Below are positions 11,590-26,896 of a stretch of DNA of 35,090 nucleotides, piece after piece. The DNA lies in the NCBI GenBank assembly GCA_003696645.1, contig RFGN01000140.1:1-35090 (forward strand). Reading direction: 5' to 3'. The notes beneath the pieces were generated by a model. It made no database searches and was not told the DNA's origin. It saw only the letters and a list, made by a program, of their open reading frames with translations. This DNA is from Gammaproteobacteria bacterium (lineage in GTDB: Bacteria; Pseudomonadota; Gammaproteobacteria; J025). Every line of letters begins with the position of its first letter. Within the stretch, counting starts at the first letter, position 1. Made by a program: the position numbers and the translations under genes.

Positions 11590-13290
11590 TCATATGGAAG
11601 ACCAGATATTGCCAAATGGATCATCGTTTCTGGACTTTTTCTTGGTCTGTTTTTTGGCTTCATCAGGATGGGTGTGCTCTGAGATATTGCCATCCTCATC
11701 CGCAATGGCATAGGCGAATTGGCGGAACGATGCCTTGGACCTGAGCAGGCGGGTGAGAATCACGGAATGTTTTTCACTGCCCATGTCCACAAAGATATGC
11801 TGTTGGGAGCGAAACAGCCCCGGGGTAATGATAGATGGGGGAATGTTCAGTTTTTCATCTGCCGGAACAAGCAGACATTCCAGTCGAGGCGGTGAGGTAT
11901 TGCCCTTTTCAAAGTTCTTGGCCTTGACCGGTTGGGCATCCCTTGAGAGGAGTTGTACGCCGAAATGAAATTCTTCGTCATCCAGATGCTGGATCCATCT
12001 CACCAGACAGATATTCCAGACGGTGGTCGGGTCATTGCGTTTGGGTTGATCCTTGATGGCCAGCAGTTCTCCCACACGAATCAGCTGGGTCTGTTCACCG
12101 CTCCAGAGCATGCCGTATCCCATGCTGCTCCGGTTGAGTATGGTGCAGGGCAGGATATTGAAACTGGTTGCTTTGCTGTCTTCGCCTTCAAACAGGATGG
12201 TGGCGTCATCATCCTCATTGGTTAGCAGTATCTCATTCTGGTTCTTTGACTGATCCAGGGTACGATGCGAGGCAGTCAGTCCAATGGCGATCTCTGTTTC
12301 CATCCTGCGTTTGGTTCGCAGACTTTTCCTCTTGCTGGTATGCTCCCAGGAGGCTACCAGGGACTTGAAGATTTCTCTGGTCAGGCCATGACCGGATTCG
12401 ATGCTGGATTGTTGTATCTCTGCCTTCAGCTGTGTGGTCATTCTTGAAGTATTGAGGATGCGTGTTTCTTCGGTCATATCCCCTTTGTACAGCGCCAGAG
12501 GAAGAGGTTTGCTGTCCTGGTCCAGATTGACAACAAACTGGCAGCGGTCATCATCCCTGTCAACATTTCGAGTCAGAGTACAGAGCATGCCATAATTTTC
12601 AACGGCCTGATTCAGTTTGATGATCTTGTCGCCATCAAGCCGATTGGGGTTGGCGATGGAGAGCAGCAGAATATCCTTGTAGGTGTTTGAAATACTGGTG
12701 ACCTTGCTGATATTTTCATCAAGGTTGTTTTCTATTTCAATGCGATGCAGCTTGTTATCCTCGGCATAACGGTAGATCTGATTGATCTCTTTCCAGACCT
12801 CCGATTCTGGAAGAGTGTAAGACTGATAGTGTGTGATCAATAGGCGATTCAGATAAAAAAGTGTTCTTTGCAGACTGCTCAGCAGCATGGGGTTACGTGA
12901 TGCTGAAGCAATATTCACTGCAGATTTTTGTGCAACGTGCTTGTAACCGATAGCCAGTTCATTGTTGATTTCGGCAGTCAGTTGAGCAACCCTTTTCCCT
13001 CGGTTACTGAGCGGATGAGGGGCATTGACAAAATGCTTGTGCAGTGCCTTCATCACAAACTCGATCGGCGCATGGATCTGTTCCAGGATATTCAGAAGAT
13101 CATTGGGTGCCAGATCACAGCGGTTGGCCAGAACCAGTGTTTGGTAGAGCTGCTTGACGGTTTCACCGGTGTTGGCCAAAGGAAGGCGGCCTATCCACTG
13201 TCTGATGCTGTTACGATCCAGCGTAAAGGGCAGATCGTCGGCCCGTCCGTCGGTATCGGGGACGGCCAGGTTCAGGGCAACGGAGCGCAT
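11590..13290 (-). CDS. Large hypothetical protein with C-terminal atypical PilZ-like domain (candidate c-di-GMP receptor)
   Basis: 566-aa ORF with AAGGA 6 nt upstream of the ATG. Contains RKSLRTKRR (overlapping RxxxR motifs, aa 321-329) and NRSSMG (N-x-S-x-x-G, aa 386-391), followed by a beta-rich segment. The N-terminal ~300 aa are helical with no motif I can name. Confidence 0.55.
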   Translation of the reverse strand: MRSVALNLAVPDTDGRADDLPFTLDRNSIRQWIGRLPLANTGETVKQLYQTLVLANRCDLAPNDLLNILEQIHAPIEFVMKALHKHFVNAPHPLSNRGKRVAQLTAEINNELAIGYKHVAQKSAVNIASASRNPMLLSSLQRTLFYLNRLLITHYQSYTLPESEVWKEINQIYRYAEDNKLHRIEIENNLDENISKVTSISNTYKDILLLSIANPNRLDGDKIIKLNQAVENYGMLCTLTRNVDRDDDRCQFVVNLDQDSKPLPLALYKGDMTEETRILNTSRMTTQLKAEIQQSSIESGHGLTREIFKSLVASWEHTSKRKSLRTKRRMETEIAIGLTASHRTLDQSKNQNEILLTNEDDDATILFEGEDSKATSFNILPCTILNRSSMGYGMLWSGEQTQLIRVGELLAIKDQPKRNDPTTVWNICLVRWIQHLDDEEFHFGVQLLSRDAQPVKAKNFEKGNTSPPRLECLLVPADEKLNIPPSIITPGLFRSQQHIFVDMGSEKHSVILTRLLRSKASFRQFAYAIADEDGNISEHTHPDEAKKQTKKKSRNDDPFGNIWSSI

Positions 13291-13389: not shown

Positions 13390-14403
13390 TCAAAAAATCC
13401 GTGACTTGTAGGGTTTATGCGGGATTTCACGGACAAAGACAGGAACAAGATACCCGGGCAGTTGTTCTTTCAGATATTCCATCAGTTCAAGTTTTCTGGC
13501 TTCATTCACTGCAAAATGGTGAGTTCCACGGACCGGATCAAGATCGTGAAGATAATAGGGCAGTACACCCATTGAAAAAAGGGCTTGGCTCAGGTCAGCA
13601 AGCACCGTTGGATGGTCATTGATGCCCTTGAGCAGAACAGTCTGGTTAAGAAGGGTGATGCCGGTTTGATGCAAGGCATTGAGGACGTATCGAACCTCGT
13701 CATCCAGCTCGTTGGGGTGATTGCTGTGAATGACCATGACGACCTGAAGTGGACAGTCTTTCAGCCAGCTCAGAAGATTTGTCGTGATACGTTCAGGTAG
13801 CACCACAGGAAGGCGTGTATGGATTCGCAAGGTATTGACATGCGAGATGTCCGAGATTTCCTGACTGATCTTTGCCAATTTTTCCGTTTCCAGCATGAGA
13901 GGATCTCCACCGCTCAGGATGACTTCCCGGATTGATGGATCCCGTTTGATCTCTTTCAGCATGGTGGGCCAGTGATGGCTCAACTGGGCGCTGCCAAGGT
14001 GATAGGGGAAGTTACGACGAAAACAATATCGGCAGTGAATGGCGCAGGCGCCGGTGACGATGAGAAGGACCCTGCCATGATACTTTCTGATGAAGCCGGG
14101 GATAGGCTGGAATTTTGATTCTTCCAGCGGGTCGATTGTGAAGCCTTCCTGTCTGATCTCTTCCTGGTTCAAGGGCAGGATCTGGCGCAGTAATGGATCA
14201 TTCGGTTGACCTGGCTGAATTCGATTGATATAGCTGCGTGAGGCCAGAACGGCAAAATCCGGATCAGAGGCGATCTGTGAAGCGATGGCAGGGTCTGCTC
14301 CCAGTCCGGTCCGGTCGAGAAGATCCCTGGCATGATGACAGGACCTCTTGAGCTCCCTTCGCCAGCTTCTTTGCTGTAATGGTGGAATTTTTGGGTTTAT
14401 CAT
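13390..14403 (-). CDS. epmB: EF-P beta-lysylation protein EpmB (lysine 2,3-aminomutase family, radical SAM)
   Basis: Radical-SAM cluster [25 protein letters not shown]...IDPLEE...[16 protein letters not shown] is collinear with E. coli EpmB/YjeK. Divergent from efp. Confidence 0.92.
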
Positions 14404-14437
14404 ATCCAGTTTTTATCTTGAAGGCACAGGAGAGAAC

Positions 14438-15007
14438 ATGGCCAGCTATAGTACCAATGAATTTCGGGGTGGACTCAAATTTTTAATGAATGGTGAACCC
14501 TGTTCCATCATTGAAAATGAATTTGTCAAGCCGGGAAAGGGCCAGGCCTTCAACCGGGTCAAATACCGTAATCTCAAGACCGGACGGGTGATTGAGAAAA
14601 CCTTCAAATCGGGTGAAACCGTTGAAGCGGCAGATGTGGTCGAGGTGGAAATGCAATTTCTCTACTGCGATGGAGAGGCCTGGCATTTCATGGATCCCAA
14701 GTCCTTTGAGCAGTATCAGGCCGATCGTGCGGCCATGAGTGATGCGGCACAGTGGCTGAAGGGTCAGGAGATCTGTATGGTTACGGTATGGAACGGAACA
14801 CCAATCCTGGTGACGCCACCCAACTTTGTCGAGCTGGCGGTCACAGAAACCGATCCGGGTTTGCGAGGAGACACCAGTTCCGGTGGCAGCAAGCCCGCAA
14901 CGCTTGAAAGTGGCGCAGTCGTTCAGGTTCCGCTGTTTATCAACATCGGAGATGTTCTGAAGGTCAATACTGCATCTGGAGAATATGTCAGCCGCGCCAA
15001 GGGGTGA
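14438..15007 (+). CDS. efp: Elongation factor P
   Basis: 189 aa. Starts [38 protein letters not shown], with the modifiable Lys in the KPGKGQA loop. AGGAGA lies upstream of ATG 14438. The ORF-track start at 14348 is an upstream extension. Confidence 0.97.
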
Positions 15008-15971
15008 CCATTATGCGCTTCCCGATCTGCGGCAAAGGTTGCAGGCACGTGCCGCGTTGCTGAACACGATCAGGACATTTTTCAGGGATCGTGGTGTACT
15101 CGAGGTCGAAACGCCATTACTTTATCCTGCCTTTTCCACGGAGCCTTTTCTGCAGCCATTTTCCGTGGAATTTTCGGGGGCGGGGGGCTGCCGTGCCAGA
15201 AGGCTGTATCTGCAGTCTTCTCCAGAATATGGGATGAAACGTCTTGTTGCGGAAGGCTCTGGTTCAGTATTCCAGATCTGCAAGGCCTTTCGTAATGGAG
15301 ACCTGGGCCATTTGCATCAGCCAGAATTCAGTCTCCTGGAATGGTATCGTGTTGGATTTGATTATCGTCAGTTGGCCCGTGAAGTGCAGTCCCTGATCGA
15401 GTCTGTGTATCCGGCATCGCGTATTCATCACCTGAGTTGTCAGACATTGCTTGCAGAATATGCCGGTGTGGACATGCATGAGAGCGACGATAGCAAACTG
15501 CGCGAGACACTGTTGCAGTGCGGTTTTTCCGAAGGTCTTGATGACGTGGATCGGGCAACGCTTATCGACTGGCTGCTGGATGAAATTATCAGAAAAAATT
15601 TTTCCGAAACCGGCATGTTGTTGATTGTTTACGACTATCCGGCGATCCACCCCCAGATGGCAGCTTTCCATGCCGAAGATGAGCGGCTGGTACAGCGCTT
15701 CGAGGCGTATCTGAATGGCATTGAACTGGCCAATGGCTATACGGAACTTCGTGACGCAGACGAACAATTGCGCCGGTTTCAGCTTGATCATGAAAGGCGC
15801 CGGTCACTGGGATTCGAAGATGTTGTCTGGGATGAAGCATTACTCGAGGCCTTGCGCACAGGGTTGCCGGAGTGTGCTGGCGTAGCTCTCGGTCTGGACC
15901 GCTTGTTGATGCTGACATCTGGAGCGACAGATATACATCAGGTCAGCAATTTTGCACTGCTGCCTGAATAA
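14985..15971 (+). CDS. epmA: EF-P-lysine lysyltransferase EpmA (PoxA/GenX, truncated class II LysRS paralogue)
   Basis: [17 protein letters not shown] (class II aaRS motif 1 region), ...SPEYGMKRL..., [12 protein letters not shown] (motif 3). No anticodon-binding domain. Overlaps the efp 3' end by 23 nt. Confidence 0.92.
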
Positions 15972-23744: not shown

Positions 23745-24530
23745 ATGAAAAGCGTTTGGTCTCAGTCAGCGGTCCTGATATGCCTGTCAGTATTTCTGGC
23801 ATCATGTCAGAGCCTGCCATCCAGAATACCTGAAAGTTCAAAGGCCTATACAGAACTTGGTCTTGCCTATTTGGAGAAAAAGAGCTATTCCCTTGCCGAG
23901 ACCAAGCTCAAGCATGCCATTGAGCTGTATGAGCGTAATGCAGAGGCCCACCATTATCTGGCTGAGCTATATCGAGTGCAGGGACGCAAGCTTTTGGCCC
24001 GAGATGAATATGAACGTGCTATTGCACTGGATCGTGATAATCCGTCCATCTGGAACAACTATGCAGTATTCCTGTGCGGGATCGGAGAATACGAGGCCTC
24101 TGAAAAATGGTTTCTCAAGGCGGCGCGCAAACGAGGTTACGAGAAACGTGCCGAGGCCTATGAGAATGCCGGAGTCTGTATGTTGGCCGCTGGAAACAGG
24201 GATCGGGCCATCCGGCATTTCGACAATGCCCTTGGCATCGAATTGCGGGAGAGATCGTTGTTGCAGCTTGCCACTCTCGAGATTGACCAGGGTCAGGCAG
24301 ACCGGGCAGTGGAAAATCTCAAACGCCTGCATCAGTTTTTCAAGCCATCACCAGAGAGCCTGTATTTGCTGGCCAGGGCAGAAAAGGATCTGGGACATTC
24401 GGATCAGGTTGAAAAGATAGCCAATCAATTCCAGGAGCTTTTTCCCGATAGTCCGTTAAACAGGAAGGTTCATTCCCTTTTTGAGTCTCACTCGGAGCAG
24501 GGCAATCATTCCGGTCAAAATGACAGATGA
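23745..24530 (+). CDS. pilW: TPR lipoprotein, type IV pilus biogenesis/stability protein PilW (PilF) type
   Basis: Lipobox VFLASC after a signal peptide. Successive TPR units match the PilW pattern: AYTELGLAYLEKKSYSLAETKLKHAIEL..., NNYAVFLCGIGEYEASEKWF..., YENAGVCMLAAGNRDRAIRHFDNAL. Confidence 0.7.
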   Translation: MKSVWSQSAVLICLSVFLASCQSLPSRIPESSKAYTELGLAYLEKKSYSLAETKLKHAIELYERNAEAHHYLAELYRVQGRKLLARDEYERAIALDRDNPSIWNNYAVFLCGIGEYEASEKWFLKAARKRGYEKRAEAYENAGVCMLAAGNRDRAIRHFDNALGIELRERSLLQLATLEIDQGQADRAVENLKRLHQFFKPSPESLYLLARAEKDLGHSDQVEKIANQFQELFPDSPLNRKVHSLFESHSEQGNHSGQNDR

Positions 24531-24925
24531 ATGACCAACCTTCGTTGATGTGCACGAGTCCGATGTTCCCAGAGAAAGATGCCCTGCCAGGTTCCCAGTG
24601 CAAGTCTGCCATCCACCACCGGGATGCTCAGGCTGGTTTCTGTGAGCATTGCCTTGATGTGTGAAGGCATGTCGTCGGGCCCTTCTGCGGTATGGGTGAA
24701 TTGTGGCTGGTTGCTTGGCACCATTCGATTGAGCCATTGTTCCAGATCGAATTGTGCAGCCGGGTCTGCATTCTCCTGGATCAGAAGGCTGGCAGAGGTG
24801 TGCTGGATGAAGATGGTGCATAATCCATCACGAGATTCTGCCTCTTTCTGGACAATGGCCTGTAGTTCACGAGTGATTTCATGAAGGCCCTGTCGATGTG
24901 TAGAAATGGTTGTTGATATGATCAT
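24515..24925 (-). CDS. yjbQ: YjbQ/UPF0047 family protein (secondary thiamine-phosphate synthase fold)
   Basis: 136 aa. GLHEITRELQ...GLCTIFIQHTSASLLIQENADP....DMPSHIKAML...SLSIPVVDGRLALGTWQGIFLWEHR is typical of YjbQ. Its 3' end overlaps pilW by 16 nt (convergent). Confidence 0.9.
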   Translation of the reverse strand: MIISTTISTHRQGLHEITRELQAIVQKEAESRDGLCTIFIQHTSASLLIQENADPAAQFDLEQWLNRMVPSNQPQFTHTAEGPDDMPSHIKAMLTETSLSIPVVDGRLALGTWQGIFLWEHRTRAHQRRLVIHLSF

Positions 24926-25946
24926 GGGTCAACGAATCCTCAGACAAATAATGGTGAGCATTATACTCCCGGGAATGTTCATTTGGGGGGAGGCTTGTCT
25001 TGCTGCAGACAAGCCTGGTGATATTCATCATGAAAAGGTAAAGGATTGCCGTGTATGTCATTCGACCTATAACCAGTCCACCATTAGGCAGTCAGGACGT
25101 TCCTGCCAGGGATGCCACGACAAACTGCCGACACCAGAACTGGAACAGGCTGAAGAGAGTGAACCCGAGGGTTACCCCAAGGATTCCCGTATCAAGATCA
25201 AGGAAATCCGGATGTATTATCCAAAAAGTCGTATTGGGCCAGAGCCCAACCCAATGGTGTTGATTCCAGCAGGTTCCTTTGTCATGGGGACCAATGACCG
25301 ATTACCGGATGAAGGCCCTGCGCATACTGTAACACTTGGCGCGTTTTATATGGATCGTTACGAGGTAACCAACCTGCAATATAAACAGTTCATTGATGCA
25401 ACGGGTCGGCGATCACCTGACCATTTCCGCAGCAGGACCTTCCCTGCAGGCAAGGCAGACCATCCTGTTGTCTATGTCACTTGGTATGATGCCGATGCCT
25501 ATTGCCATTGGGCAGGGAAAAGGCTCCCGACACAGGAAGAATGGGAAAAGGCGGCTCGGGGAACCGATGCGCGACCCTTTCCATGGGGGAGGCGTTTTGA
25601 TATCAATGCTGCCAATACGCCCCTGAGATGGTCTGCCCTGGGGACTGAAGGGGATACCACTCCGGTCGGAAGTTTTCCGGAGGGGGTGAGTCCATATGGC
25701 CTCTATGATATGTCTGGAAATGTCTGGGAATGGACTTCTTCATGGTATAAACCCTATCCGGGGAGTCGATGGGAATCGGAAAATTATGGAGAGTTGTATA
25801 AAGTTCTGAAAGGGGGTTCCTGGTGGGATTGCTCCTTCTACCAGTGCGGCATCTCTGCACCGGTCTACAATCGGAGTTTCTTTCAAAAACGGACCAAGAA
25901 TGCCAGTTTTGGGTTCAGATGTGCCAGGGATGGAGGCAAGACATGA
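24906..25946 (+). CDS. Periplasmic formylglycine-generating-enzyme (FGE/SUMF1) family protein with N-terminal di-haem (2x CXXCH) module
   Basis: Signal-peptide-like N-terminus. CRVCH at 25047-25061 and CQGCH at 25104-25118. FGE-sulfatase core: MVLIPAGSFVMGT...EGPAHTVTL.AFYMDRYEVTN.QY..F...HPVVYVTWYDA.AYC.WAGKRLPT..EWEKAARG...YPWG......GLYDMSGNVWEWT....VLKGGSW...FGFRCARD. C-x4-C pair CSFYQC at 25830-25847. In-frame alternative starts at 24918, 24924 and 24951. Confidence 0.85.
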   Translation: MVVDMIMGQRILRQIMVSIILPGMFIWGEACLAADKPGDIHHEKVKDCRVCHSTYNQSTIRQSGRSCQGCHDKLPTPELEQAEESEPEGYPKDSRIKIKEIRMYYPKSRIGPEPNPMVLIPAGSFVMGTNDRLPDEGPAHTVTLGAFYMDRYEVTNLQYKQFIDATGRRSPDHFRSRTFPAGKADHPVVYVTWYDADAYCHWAGKRLPTQEEWEKAARGTDARPFPWGRRFDINAANTPLRWSALGTEGDTTPVGSFPEGVSPYGLYDMSGNVWEWTSSWYKPYPGSRWESENYGELYKVLKGGSWWDCSFYQCGISAPVYNRSFFQKRTKNASFGFRCARDGGKT

Positions 25947-26896
25947 TGAGAGCGGGATGGTTGACCGGGATAGTGGCCCTCCTTTTGATCGATTCCGTGT
26001 GGGCATCGTCATCTTCTTCTGCGCAATGGGTCACGATACCAGCCGGTCCATTTCTGATGGGTACGGCAGATGAAGAGATCAGTCAGCAGGAGGACAAGAG
26101 CGGGATATACGGTTCAGGCAAGCCATGGTTTGTCGATGAGAGACCACAGCACAGTGTAACATTGCCGGAATACCAGATCGAAAGAACCGAGGTAACCAAC
26201 GCCCAATTCAGGGCTTATGTGATTCAGGAGAATACACGTGTCCCTCTGGAATGGATCAAGAATGGTTATCTGCTGGATCGAAAGATCCTGAACATTGCCA
26301 CGCTGTCGAAACTTCGTGATCTGGCCGCCAATCTATTTCGCCTGGATCTTGACGTTTCAAAAATGACCAAGGAAGATATTCTCGATCGAATCGAAGCCCA
26401 TCAACAGGCTCAGGATAACCTTCCTGTCGTCACGGTGGACTGGGAATTGGCACAGGGATACTGCACATGGCTAGGTGGTCGGTTACCGACTGAAGCGGAA
26501 TGGGAAAAGGCTGCCCGGGGGCCTGATGCCAGAATCTACCCATGGGGAAACAGGTGGGACAGATCCAGACTGAATATAGGGGAAGACCCGGATTATCCTT
26601 CCGGTGTCACCCCGGTCGGCCATTATCCCAGTGGTAAATCCTATTACGGACTCATGGACATGGCCGGAAATGTCATGGAATGGACCATGGATGATTACCG
26701 GGCCTATCCGGAGGGAAAATTGCCTGCTGGAGCAAAGGGCAAGGGTCAAAAGGTCTTGCGTGGTGGAGGTTGGGGCGGTCTGGGTCACTATGTGATCAGC
26801 CATTTCTATCGTACAGCCTATCGATTCTATCTGCCACGAACGGCCCAATTCAATGATGTGGGTGTCCGGTGTGTAAGAGACCTGCATCATGACTGA
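25943..26896 (+). CDS. Second FGE/SUMF1-family periplasmic protein, lacking the Cys pair and carrying a ~60-aa insertion
   Basis: ATG 25943 overlaps the upstream stop (ATGA) and follows GGAGG. Signal peptide MMRAGWLTGIVALLLIDSVWA. FGE core: WVTIPAGPFLMGT...ERPQHSVTL.EYQIERTEVTNAQF...LPVVTVDW.LAQGYCTWLGGRLPTEAEWEKAARG...YPWGN...YGLMDMAGNVMEWT...VLRGGGW...VGVRCVRD. No cysteine in the GGGWGGLGHYVISHFYR segment. Confidence 0.85.
   Translation: MMRAGWLTGIVALLLIDSVWASSSSSAQWVTIPAGPFLMGTADEEISQQEDKSGIYGSGKPWFVDERPQHSVTLPEYQIERTEVTNAQFRAYVIQENTRVPLEWIKNGYLLDRKILNIATLSKLRDLAANLFRLDLDVSKMTKEDILDRIEAHQQAQDNLPVVTVDWELAQGYCTWLGGRLPTEAEWEKAARGPDARIYPWGNRWDRSRLNIGEDPDYPSGVTPVGHYPSGKSYYGLMDMAGNVMEWTMDDYRAYPEGKLPAGAKGKGQKVLRGGGWGGLGHYVISHFYRTAYRFYLPRTAQFNDVGVRCVRDLHHD

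Follow-up and report, generated by a model that had tools for sequence, protein, structure and literature searches.

A conserved gene pair encoding an exported FGE-fold protein with a putative di-haem module and its cysteine-less paralogue in a gammaproteobacterial contig

The contig RFGN01000140.1 (GenBank assembly GCA_003696645.1, assembled from metagenomic data for an uncultured gammaproteobacterium) was analysed along its whole 35,090 bp, hereafter the window, and this report centres on two adjacent genes that encode exported proteins with the fold of the formylglycine-generating enzyme (FGE). Gene A (24906..25946, + strand; defined from the list of open reading frames (ORFs), Pfam and its homologues) encodes an exported protein of 346 residues counted from the ATG at 24906, with a doubled haem-attachment motif and an FGE fold; its product is identical to GenBank RMH20689.1, which is annotated as 'formylglycine-generating enzyme family protein'. 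Gene B (25943..26896, + strand; Pfam E = 1.5e-51 and inspection of the sequence) encodes an exported FGE-fold paralogue of 317 residues, whose loop reads G-G-L-G-H-Y. A first-pass annotation, made by a model from the sequence alone, had proposed that protein A is a cytochrome-type module fused to an FGE; the fusion is real, and consists of a conserved doubled-CXXCH module joined to an FGE-fold domain. Its conservation was assessed in an alignment of 121 sequences that includes the 120 best homologues among thousands of FGE-domain proteins matched; these share 55-87% identity with the query and cover 80-99% of it (most of them more than 86%). Related loci, designated L001 and so on, were sampled by a genome scan that is not a census, so that the family comprises at least the loci listed.

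Protein A is predicted to be exported by means of a Sec signal peptide, residues 1-33 (24906..25004, + strand), recognised by hydropathy and inspection of the sequence: a basic n-region is followed by hydrophobic residues 10-27 and then by C-L-A/A, and a comparable hydrophobic N-terminal segment is present in all the homologues of the alignment. A lipoprotein reading of C31 (G-E-A-C) was dropped because the lipobox is poor and the cysteine is not conserved. The annotated ATG lies within the divergent yjbQ ORF (24515-24925), and the alternative ATG at 24924, which yields a better signal peptide (MGQRILRQ...), is probably the true start. The first-pass annotation had raised the possibility that translation starts downstream of the CXXCH motifs; every plausible start was found upstream of both.

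The first haem-attachment motif, C48-R-V-C-H52 (25047..25061, + strand), is present in 120 of the 121 aligned sequences, and the second, C67-Q-G-C-H71 (25104..25118, + strand), in all of them; by residue, C67, C70 and H71 are invariant, and C48, C51 and H52 are each found in 120 of 121. Exactly 14 residues lie between H52 and C67, as had been described. Two CXXCH motifs occur in 119 of the 120 closest homologues, 17-28 residues apart from start to start, and the sequence between and around them is free to vary. From this pattern, covalent attachment of haem c on the doubled CXXCH may be inferred. The segment of the window protein gave weak matches to Cytochrom_c3_2 (19.1 bits, cut-off 25) and Cytochrome_C7 (17.1 bits, cut-off 24.8), both sub-threshold; weak, sub-threshold matches also recur in 28 and 24 of 34 family members, respectively. 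Candidate axial ligands are a histidine upstream of the motifs (93 of 120 homologues), a histidine between them (60 of 120) and a methionine downstream of the second one (111 of 120). In the AlphaFold2 model of protein A the haem segment is undefined, as expected for a prediction made without cofactors. The CXXC...CXXC arrangement was also considered as a zinc ribbon, given a weak match to zf-Tbcl_FmdE (E = 0.026); this reading was rejected in favour of haem c because of the export of the protein and the conserved histidine that follows each CXXC.

The haem motifs are joined to the FGE-fold domain by a Pro-containing linker, residues 72-97 (25119..25196, + strand), whose composition (8 Asp/Glu, 4 Lys/Arg and 4 Pro in 26 residues) bears out its earlier description as acidic; its length and sequence vary among the homologues, with indels of up to about 45 residues. 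It is followed by a conserved connector (25197..25250, + strand), for which the column counts give the family consensus G-M-x-x-P-M-Y-Y-x-x-S-R-[IL]-G-x-x-P-N. Among the 121 sequences M99 is found in 86, M103 in 72, Y104 in 111, R109 in 109, G111 in 115 and P114 in 115. The connector supplies candidate methionine axial ligands in the family, and of these the window protein has M103 only.

The FGE-sulfatase fold domain spans residues 116-341 (25251..25928, + strand) according to Pfam, AlphaFold2 and Foldseek. The match to PF03781 (E = 2e-63, 214.9 bits against a cut-off of 23.3) covers profile positions 4-255 of 255, the AlphaFold2 model has a confidence (pLDDT) above 90 across most of the domain, and the top Foldseek matches are all FGE-fold proteins, namely ToxD, CalU17, pFGE and FGEs (E = 1e-18 to 1e-22), and also EgtB and PvdO. 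The complete FGE-sulfatase fold that had been recognised from the sequence is thus supported by a full-length profile match and by the predicted structure. The first-pass annotation had suggested a scan with PF03781 and cytochrome models, and its outcome is mixed: the former is above its cut-off, whereas the cytochrome models remain below threshold, and Pfam and NCBIfam recognise in protein A only the FGE-sulfatase domain. The models of other members of the superfamily do not account for it. The sulfoxide synthases EgtB, SenA and OvoA carry a DinB-like iron-binding domain at the N-terminus, ahead of their FGE-like part. In EgtB (121 bits, cut-off 360), SenA (113, cut-off 420) and OvoA (51, cut-off 400) only the C-terminal FGE-like part matches the domain, in all cases below the cut-off, and the PvdO (82 bits, cut-off 500) and GldK (105, cut-off 350) matches are likewise below the NCBIfam equivalog cut-offs.

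When a profile of the family was compared with the sequences of the PDB, the best match was human FGE (E = 1e-43). Nonetheless, descent from FGE is not supported, because the domain is closer to cysteine-less FGE-fold proteins than to FGEs linked to sulfatases. In BLASTP comparisons it shows 28-36% identity (77-122 bits) to eight plasmid-encoded FGEs, five of which are encoded within 2.5 kb of a sulfatase gene, and 40-50% identity (150-230 bits) to cysteine-less proteins, which include the B-type partners and many paralogues from Nitrospira and Chloroflexi. Judged by these comparisons, protein A is not an FGE orthologue by descent. The superfamily is very large: an HMMER search of 1.84 billion cluster representatives gave 182,739 FGE-sulfatase superfamily matches at E <= 0.001; its top ranks are giant proteins with multiple FGE-domain repeats, and about ten single-domain family representatives were picked out.

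The active-site loop, placed by the family alignment, is G303-G-S-W-W-D-C309-S-F-Y-Q-C314-G-I-S-A-P-V-Y-N-R323 (25812..25874, + strand), with the codons of C309 at 25830-25832 and of C314 at 25845-25847, both on the + strand. The sequence C-[ST]-[FY]-Y-x-C follows G-G-S in the 120 closest homologues without exception, which upholds the earlier observation of a conserved C-x4-C near the C-terminus and puts the pair on the active-site loop. The residues G303, G304, S305, W306, D308, C309, Y312, C314, G315, S317, A318, P319, N322 and R323 are invariant in the 121 sequences, as are the cysteines C200 and C339. C200 (25503..25505, + strand, in 'AYCHW') corresponds in alignment numbering to C218 of human FGE, and its likely disulfide partner C339 (25920-25922) to C365. 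The structural disulfides of human FGE are C365-C218 and C346-C235 (PMC4505483), and a structural disulfide between C200 and C339 is likely from this correspondence; both cysteines are also kept in protein B. The mature protein A has eight cysteines: four belong to the CXXCH motifs, two are the structural-disulfide equivalents and two are in the loop. C314 has no alternative disulfide partner because the position of human C235 is occupied by alanine; C309 and C314 are the only cysteines left unassigned, and therefore must act together.

In human FGE the cysteines of the loop are spaced C336-x4-C341-x4-C346, and C336 and C341 hold the copper; Cu(I) is bound in FGE by just two cysteines (PMC5324649). 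The first-pass annotation stated that CSFYQC aligns with these copper ligands, and this holds in one kind of alignment and fails in another. The pairwise alignment by phmmer places C309 on C336 and C314 on C341, with two single-residue indels, and also W274 on W299 and S305 on S333. In contrast, the family profile aligns D308 with the first copper cysteine and C309 with the second (C341), and moves C314 five residues further, at the cost of one 4-residue and one 6-residue indel, and hhalign against sulfatase-linked bacterial FGEs gives the same shifted register. The shifted register is driven by a resemblance to C-x-x-Y-[KR]; the FGE arginine that residue 313 would match in that register has no fixed counterpart, since the family has K, Q, R, N or E at this position. 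Counted from the flanking conserved strands, the pair lies at loop positions 4 and 9, as compared with 3 and 8 in FGEs, which favours the pairwise register (C309/C314 = C336/C341). In the AlphaFold2 model the loop is undefined from 305 to 320, with pLDDT below 50 for residues 310-313.

The protein A loop is two residues longer than that of FGE, and the FGE signature G-G-S-[FYH]-[LM]-C-x-x-x-Y-C-x-x-Y-R-x-[AS]-x-R is absent; the family has instead G-G-S-W-[WF]-D-C-S-F-Y-x-C-G-[IV]-S-A-P-x-x-N-R, in which the position that would correspond to R345 is proline or variable, with no R-Y-R. The description of the pair as a retained catalytic-type one, which implies descent from FGE, is therefore not sustained, since the domain is nearer to cysteine-less proteins and the C-H-x-S-Y-C-x-R-Y-R signature is missing. 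What can be defended from the alignments is that a conserved C-x4-C lies on the FGE active-site loop and that one of its cysteines, if not both, corresponds to a copper ligand.

After gene A itself, gene B is the most conserved feature of the locus, and the first-pass account of the region had missed it. GGAGG (25932-25936), a Shine-Dalgarno sequence, precedes an ATGA overlap in which the start codon of B (25943-25945) and the stop codon of A (25944-25946) are superimposed (25932..25946, + strand, read from the sequence and the ORF frames); given these two elements, the arrangement fits translational coupling of A and B. Protein B has a signal peptide, no CXXCH motif and no loop cysteine, its only two cysteines being the structural pair, and in other genomes it mostly carries a lipoprotein box. 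A B gene lies within two genes downstream of A in 18 of the 22 A-family loci with a readable downstream region, and the order A then B was found in gammaproteobacterial, betaproteobacterial (Gallionellaceae), Desulfobacterota-type and Nitrospirota metagenome-assembled genomes (MAGs). On a 588-kb metagenomic contig (L001, 7968-11985) the genes form a tandem A-B-A'-B', and both A copies have two haem motifs and the cysteine pair. In the window, the stop of gene B overlaps the start-codon region of rnr (RNase R) at 26889-26896, and rlmB comes next; A-B-rnr-rlmB may form one transcript, and this neighbourhood is not conserved in other genomes.

Haem motifs and cysteine pair co-occur in almost all full-length members of the family, and their conservation shows that neither arose by chance. 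Among more divergent relatives (approximately 42-50% identity), a gene for a monohaem class-I cytochrome c lies immediately upstream of A in five loci (L009 1712-2197, L011 3262-4246, L013 5541-5894, L094 6517-6990 and L096 1598-2020). Further cytochromes c, a cytochrome b, a COX1-like gene and a haem O synthase gene are found near A in L011, L095, L097 and L100; in L100, A is surrounded by a cytochrome b, several cytochromes c and a cytochrome bd-like subunit, and in L011 a COX1-like gene (685-2148) and a haem O synthase gene (2277-3131) are located upstream of it. Three of these loci also carry ubiA. In L100 (3876-5714) the 612-residue protein P0190 unites a 4-hydroxybenzoate octaprenyltransferase (UbiA; TIGR01474, 285 bits, cut-off 275), two CXXCH motifs and an FGE domain with the cysteine pair; in L095 (1001-2955) the stop of ubiA overlaps the start of A; and in L097 (2041-6401) the order is a chorismate-lyase-like gene, ubiA, B', A and B. 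This association may hint at a link with quinone biosynthesis or at membrane tethering. Neither cytochrome c nor ubiA neighbours are present around the gamma- and betaproteobacterial loci, including the window.

Within the 35,090-bp window no sulfatase gene was detected, nor was any sulfatase signature in the flanks of 15 A-family loci that include the window (for the source genome, this contig only), in agreement with the earlier remark that no sulfatase lies nearby. When the flanks of 16 related loci were compared all against all, B was the sole conserved neighbour, and predicted promoters and terminators were no more frequent between 24400 and 30000 than in shuffled sequence. The window genes with a family match (parE/parC, efp with epmA/epmB, rsgA, orn, tsaC, prmB, pilW, rnr, rlmB, folD and leuCDB) are housekeeping genes, with the exception of one for a large surface protein. 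The product of the latter (1378-6789, + strand; 1803 residues) combines DUF7948, DUF11 repeats and a beta-propeller repeat with an OmpA-like beta-barrel at the C-terminus, and is probably a large surface or outer-membrane protein. The divergent yjbQ (UPF0047; 24515-24925, - strand) and gene A, as annotated, share 20 bases at the start of the latter; of the related loci searched, one gammaproteobacterial MAG (L084) has the same yjbQ/A-B arrangement and the 15 others lack it. Elsewhere, the usual EF-P lysylation cluster occupies 13390-15971, where efp is accompanied by an epmB-like radical-SAM gene and by an epmA-like, truncated class-II tRNA-synthetase-like gene, and a 566-residue ORF without a Pfam match at E <= 1e-5 (11590-13290, - strand) is located between parC and epmB-efp-epmA.

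We propose, tentatively and at somewhat less than an even chance, that A and B form a periplasmic two-protein redox module, a clade of its own in the FGE-sulfatase superfamily, in which the haems exchange electrons with a site formed by the cysteine pair. Protein A would be exported by the Sec route and would receive two covalent c-type haems on the doubled CXXCH; these would shuttle electrons one at a time between C309/C314 and the pool of soluble cytochrome c in the periplasm. The pair would most likely hold Cu(I), as the FGE pair does, or, failing that, would undergo dithiol/disulfide cycling, and the resulting redox site would oxidise a thiol or another group on a periplasmic substrate other than a sulfatase. 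Protein B, cysteine-less, usually lipidated and presumably made in step with A, would be non-catalytic and would anchor or shape the complex, in a pairing similar to that of SUMF2 with SUMF1. The idea in the first-pass annotation that the haems are an electron entry point to an FGE-like site gains from the cytochrome c neighbours of the relatives and loses the part that took the site for that of an authentic FGE. A more specific form, a novel haem-plus-copper oxidase in which a mononuclear Cu(I) bis-thiolate centre of the FGE type is wired through the two c-type haems to the respiratory cytochrome c pool and, accompanied by a lipoprotein paralogue, acts on a periplasmic substrate that has no relation to sulfatases, is possible and rather doubtful; copper binding and O2 chemistry are inferred for protein A. 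The UbiA fusion suggests a more distant variant, with a prenylated quinone or a haem intermediate as a possible substrate of the module at the membrane surface.

Several observations weigh against this proposal. All Pfam cytochrome matches fall below threshold, in the window protein and in the 34 members, and the axial haem ligands are not clearly conserved, none of them being universal (M103, for instance, in 72 of 121). L008 has the cysteine pair without haems and L013 the haems without the pair: in the former (5857-6678) a signal peptide and the pair (CSGYHC) are present with no haem motifs, in the latter (5839-6861) two CXXCH motifs precede a B-type G-H-Y loop, and a B gene follows in both. 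Neither the family profile nor hhalign puts both cysteines on the copper ligands; the H337, S-Y and R-Y-R of FGE are absent, and residue 313 is variable. Given that the nearest relatives lack it, the cysteine pair may be a separate invention, and a periplasmic C-x4-C could simply be a disulfide. In addition, no copper-handling genes were found nearby in the window.

If protein A were a true FGE with a built-in reductant, it would use copper and O2 to turn a cysteine of CxPxR-type sulfatases, whose genes would lie elsewhere in the genome, into formylglycine in the periplasm, and the haems would supply the two electrons that dithiothreitol provides in vitro. The identical C-x4-C spacing, the pairwise correspondence of C309/C314, W274 and S305 with C336/C341, W299 and S333, and the rank of human FGE as best PDB match of the family profile (E = 1e-43) are in its favour, and the physiological reductant of FGE has not been identified (PMC12123546), which also agrees with the earlier statement that FGE needs an external reductant. 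However, the domain resembles cysteine-less paralogues (40-50% identity) more than sulfatase-linked FGEs (28-36%), the loop signature is missing, the profile alignments move the pair by five residues, no sulfatase was seen in 15 A-family loci whereas one is beside five of the eight sampled plasmid FGEs, and partner B has no counterpart in bacterial FGE systems; we consider this explanation quite unlikely. That protein A is a non-catalytic binding module, similar to PorK/GldK, the immunity proteins of type VI secretion systems or pFGE, with a structural C309-C314 disulfide and the di-haem segment as a small electron carrier docked by the fold onto another redox protein, also has a low probability. 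FGEs are a minority among the 182,739 cluster representatives of the superfamily, many members of which are scaffolds (PMC12421860 and 10.1101/2021.05.21.445229); moreover, the closest relatives lack the catalytic cysteines and the periplasm favours disulfides. Yet fourteen invariant loop residues, among them D308, Y312, G315 and the S-A-P, exceed what a disulfide staple needs, the cysteine pair and the haems co-occur, and B is already a cysteine-less copy able to act as a scaffold.

The genomic context brings in two further explanations. Protein A could be an accessory of the respiratory chain, in which the haems keep the pair, as a redox-active dithiol/disulfide or as a carrier site for Cu(I), in its proper state, and which serves the assembly or maintenance of redox enzymes of the periplasm or membrane (e.g. 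haem-copper oxidases) or feeds thiol electrons to cytochrome c. It would fit the cytochrome c genes that adjoin A in eight divergent loci, and L011 in particular, where a COX1-like gene, a haem O synthase gene and two cytochrome c genes are immediately upstream of A-B-B; the housekeeping surroundings of the gamma- and betaproteobacterial pair would suit a constitutive service function, and fusions of bufferin, cytochrome c and FGE-sulfatase domains occur in clusters for copper-chelating peptides (PMC12452194). Nevertheless, this explanation is unlikely: the respiratory context is confined to certain lineages and is missing in the window, genes for Sco, PCuAC or Cop proteins were not seen, the FGE fold has no precedent as a chaperone or thiol oxidase, and the bufferin fusions, known here by description, need not carry the cysteine pair. 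An oxidase acting on the product of a UbiA-type prenyltransferase (prenyl-hydroxybenzoate, a quinone or haem O) at the outer face of the inner membrane would explain the above-cut-off UbiA fusion P0190, the ubiA-A overlap of L095, the row of chorismate-lyase-like gene, ubiA, B', A and B in L097, and the haem O synthase gene upstream in L011. We regard it as very improbable, given that this context is restricted to 4 of 23 A-family loci, all divergent and never gamma- or betaproteobacterial, and that the fusion could be a mere membrane anchor; besides, the active sites of UbiA enzymes in published structures face the cytoplasm.

A full-text literature search found no description or functional study of a di-haem/FGE fusion, consistent with the earlier claim that a cytochrome-fused FGE had not been functionally characterised. 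Databases label these proteins 'formylglycine-generating enzyme family protein' and leave the haem module unrecognised, and therefore a role in sulfatase maturation could be wrongly inferred for them. To our knowledge, no oxidase other than FGE has a mononuclear Cu(I) site in which two cysteines hold the metal; if a similar pair sits beside built-in haems in protein A, the reduction of such a copper site could be studied in this family within one self-contained system, and the family could also reveal a new periplasmic oxidation reaction. Should the copper-haem form of the proposal be true, protein A would provide the first example of an FGE-fold enzyme served by its own protein electron donor, and with it a view of how copper sites of this kind are maintained in living cells. 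The A-B pair, together with the cytochrome c and UbiA links of some lineages, provides concrete starting points for experiments.

Among known systems, protein A shares its fold with the aerobic FGEs (human SUMF1 and the enzymes of S. coelicolor, T. curvata and M. tuberculosis). It has a C-x4-C pair on the same loop between the same two strands, and keeps the equivalent of the C218-C365 disulfide and, as W274 and S305, the equivalents of W299 and S333; human FGE acts in the endoplasmic reticulum and protein A likewise outside the cytoplasm. It differs from them in its N-terminal di-haem module, its paralogous partner gene and the lack of linkage to sulfatases, and bacterial FGE systems have no counterpart of partner B. 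The closest parallel to B is pFGE/SUMF2, also an FGE-fold paralogue without active-site cysteines that accompanies a cysteine-bearing one, and pFGE is among the best Foldseek matches of protein A; in contrast to SUMF2, B is bacterial, usually a lipoprotein, and encoded in the same operon as A with probable translational coupling. We take the relation between B and SUMF2 as an analogy and not as orthology, and a complex of A and B is putative. PvdO (pyoverdine maturation; 'dihydropyoverdine dehydrogenase' in NCBIfam) is, like protein A, a periplasmic FGE-fold protein unconnected with sulfatases; it has been implicated in an oxidation for which the protein contains no electron acceptor of its own, it has neither a haem motif nor the cysteine pair, and no pyoverdine genes are near gene A in the window. 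The small multihaem cytochromes of the c3/c7 type have closely spaced CXXCH motifs (about 20 residues from start to start) as protein A does; unlike them, protein A devotes some 25 residues to two haems, and the segment is a tag on an enzyme-like domain instead of a free-standing cytochrome.

The Buf1-Cytochrom_C-FGE-sulfatase fusions reported in a survey of MNIO enzymes and bufferins, in gene clusters for copper-chelating peptides (PMC12452194), also unite a c-type cytochrome and an FGE-sulfatase domain in one exported protein, and the authors note a possible link with copper. Compared by description, these fusions have a class-I monohaem domain (PF00034) and a bufferin domain, whereas protein A has a doubled CXXCH of the c3/c7 type and no bufferin. 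The protein A family, which is common in environmental bacteria, is thus a variant form in an already known superfamily, and the bufferin fusions are its nearest mention in the literature.

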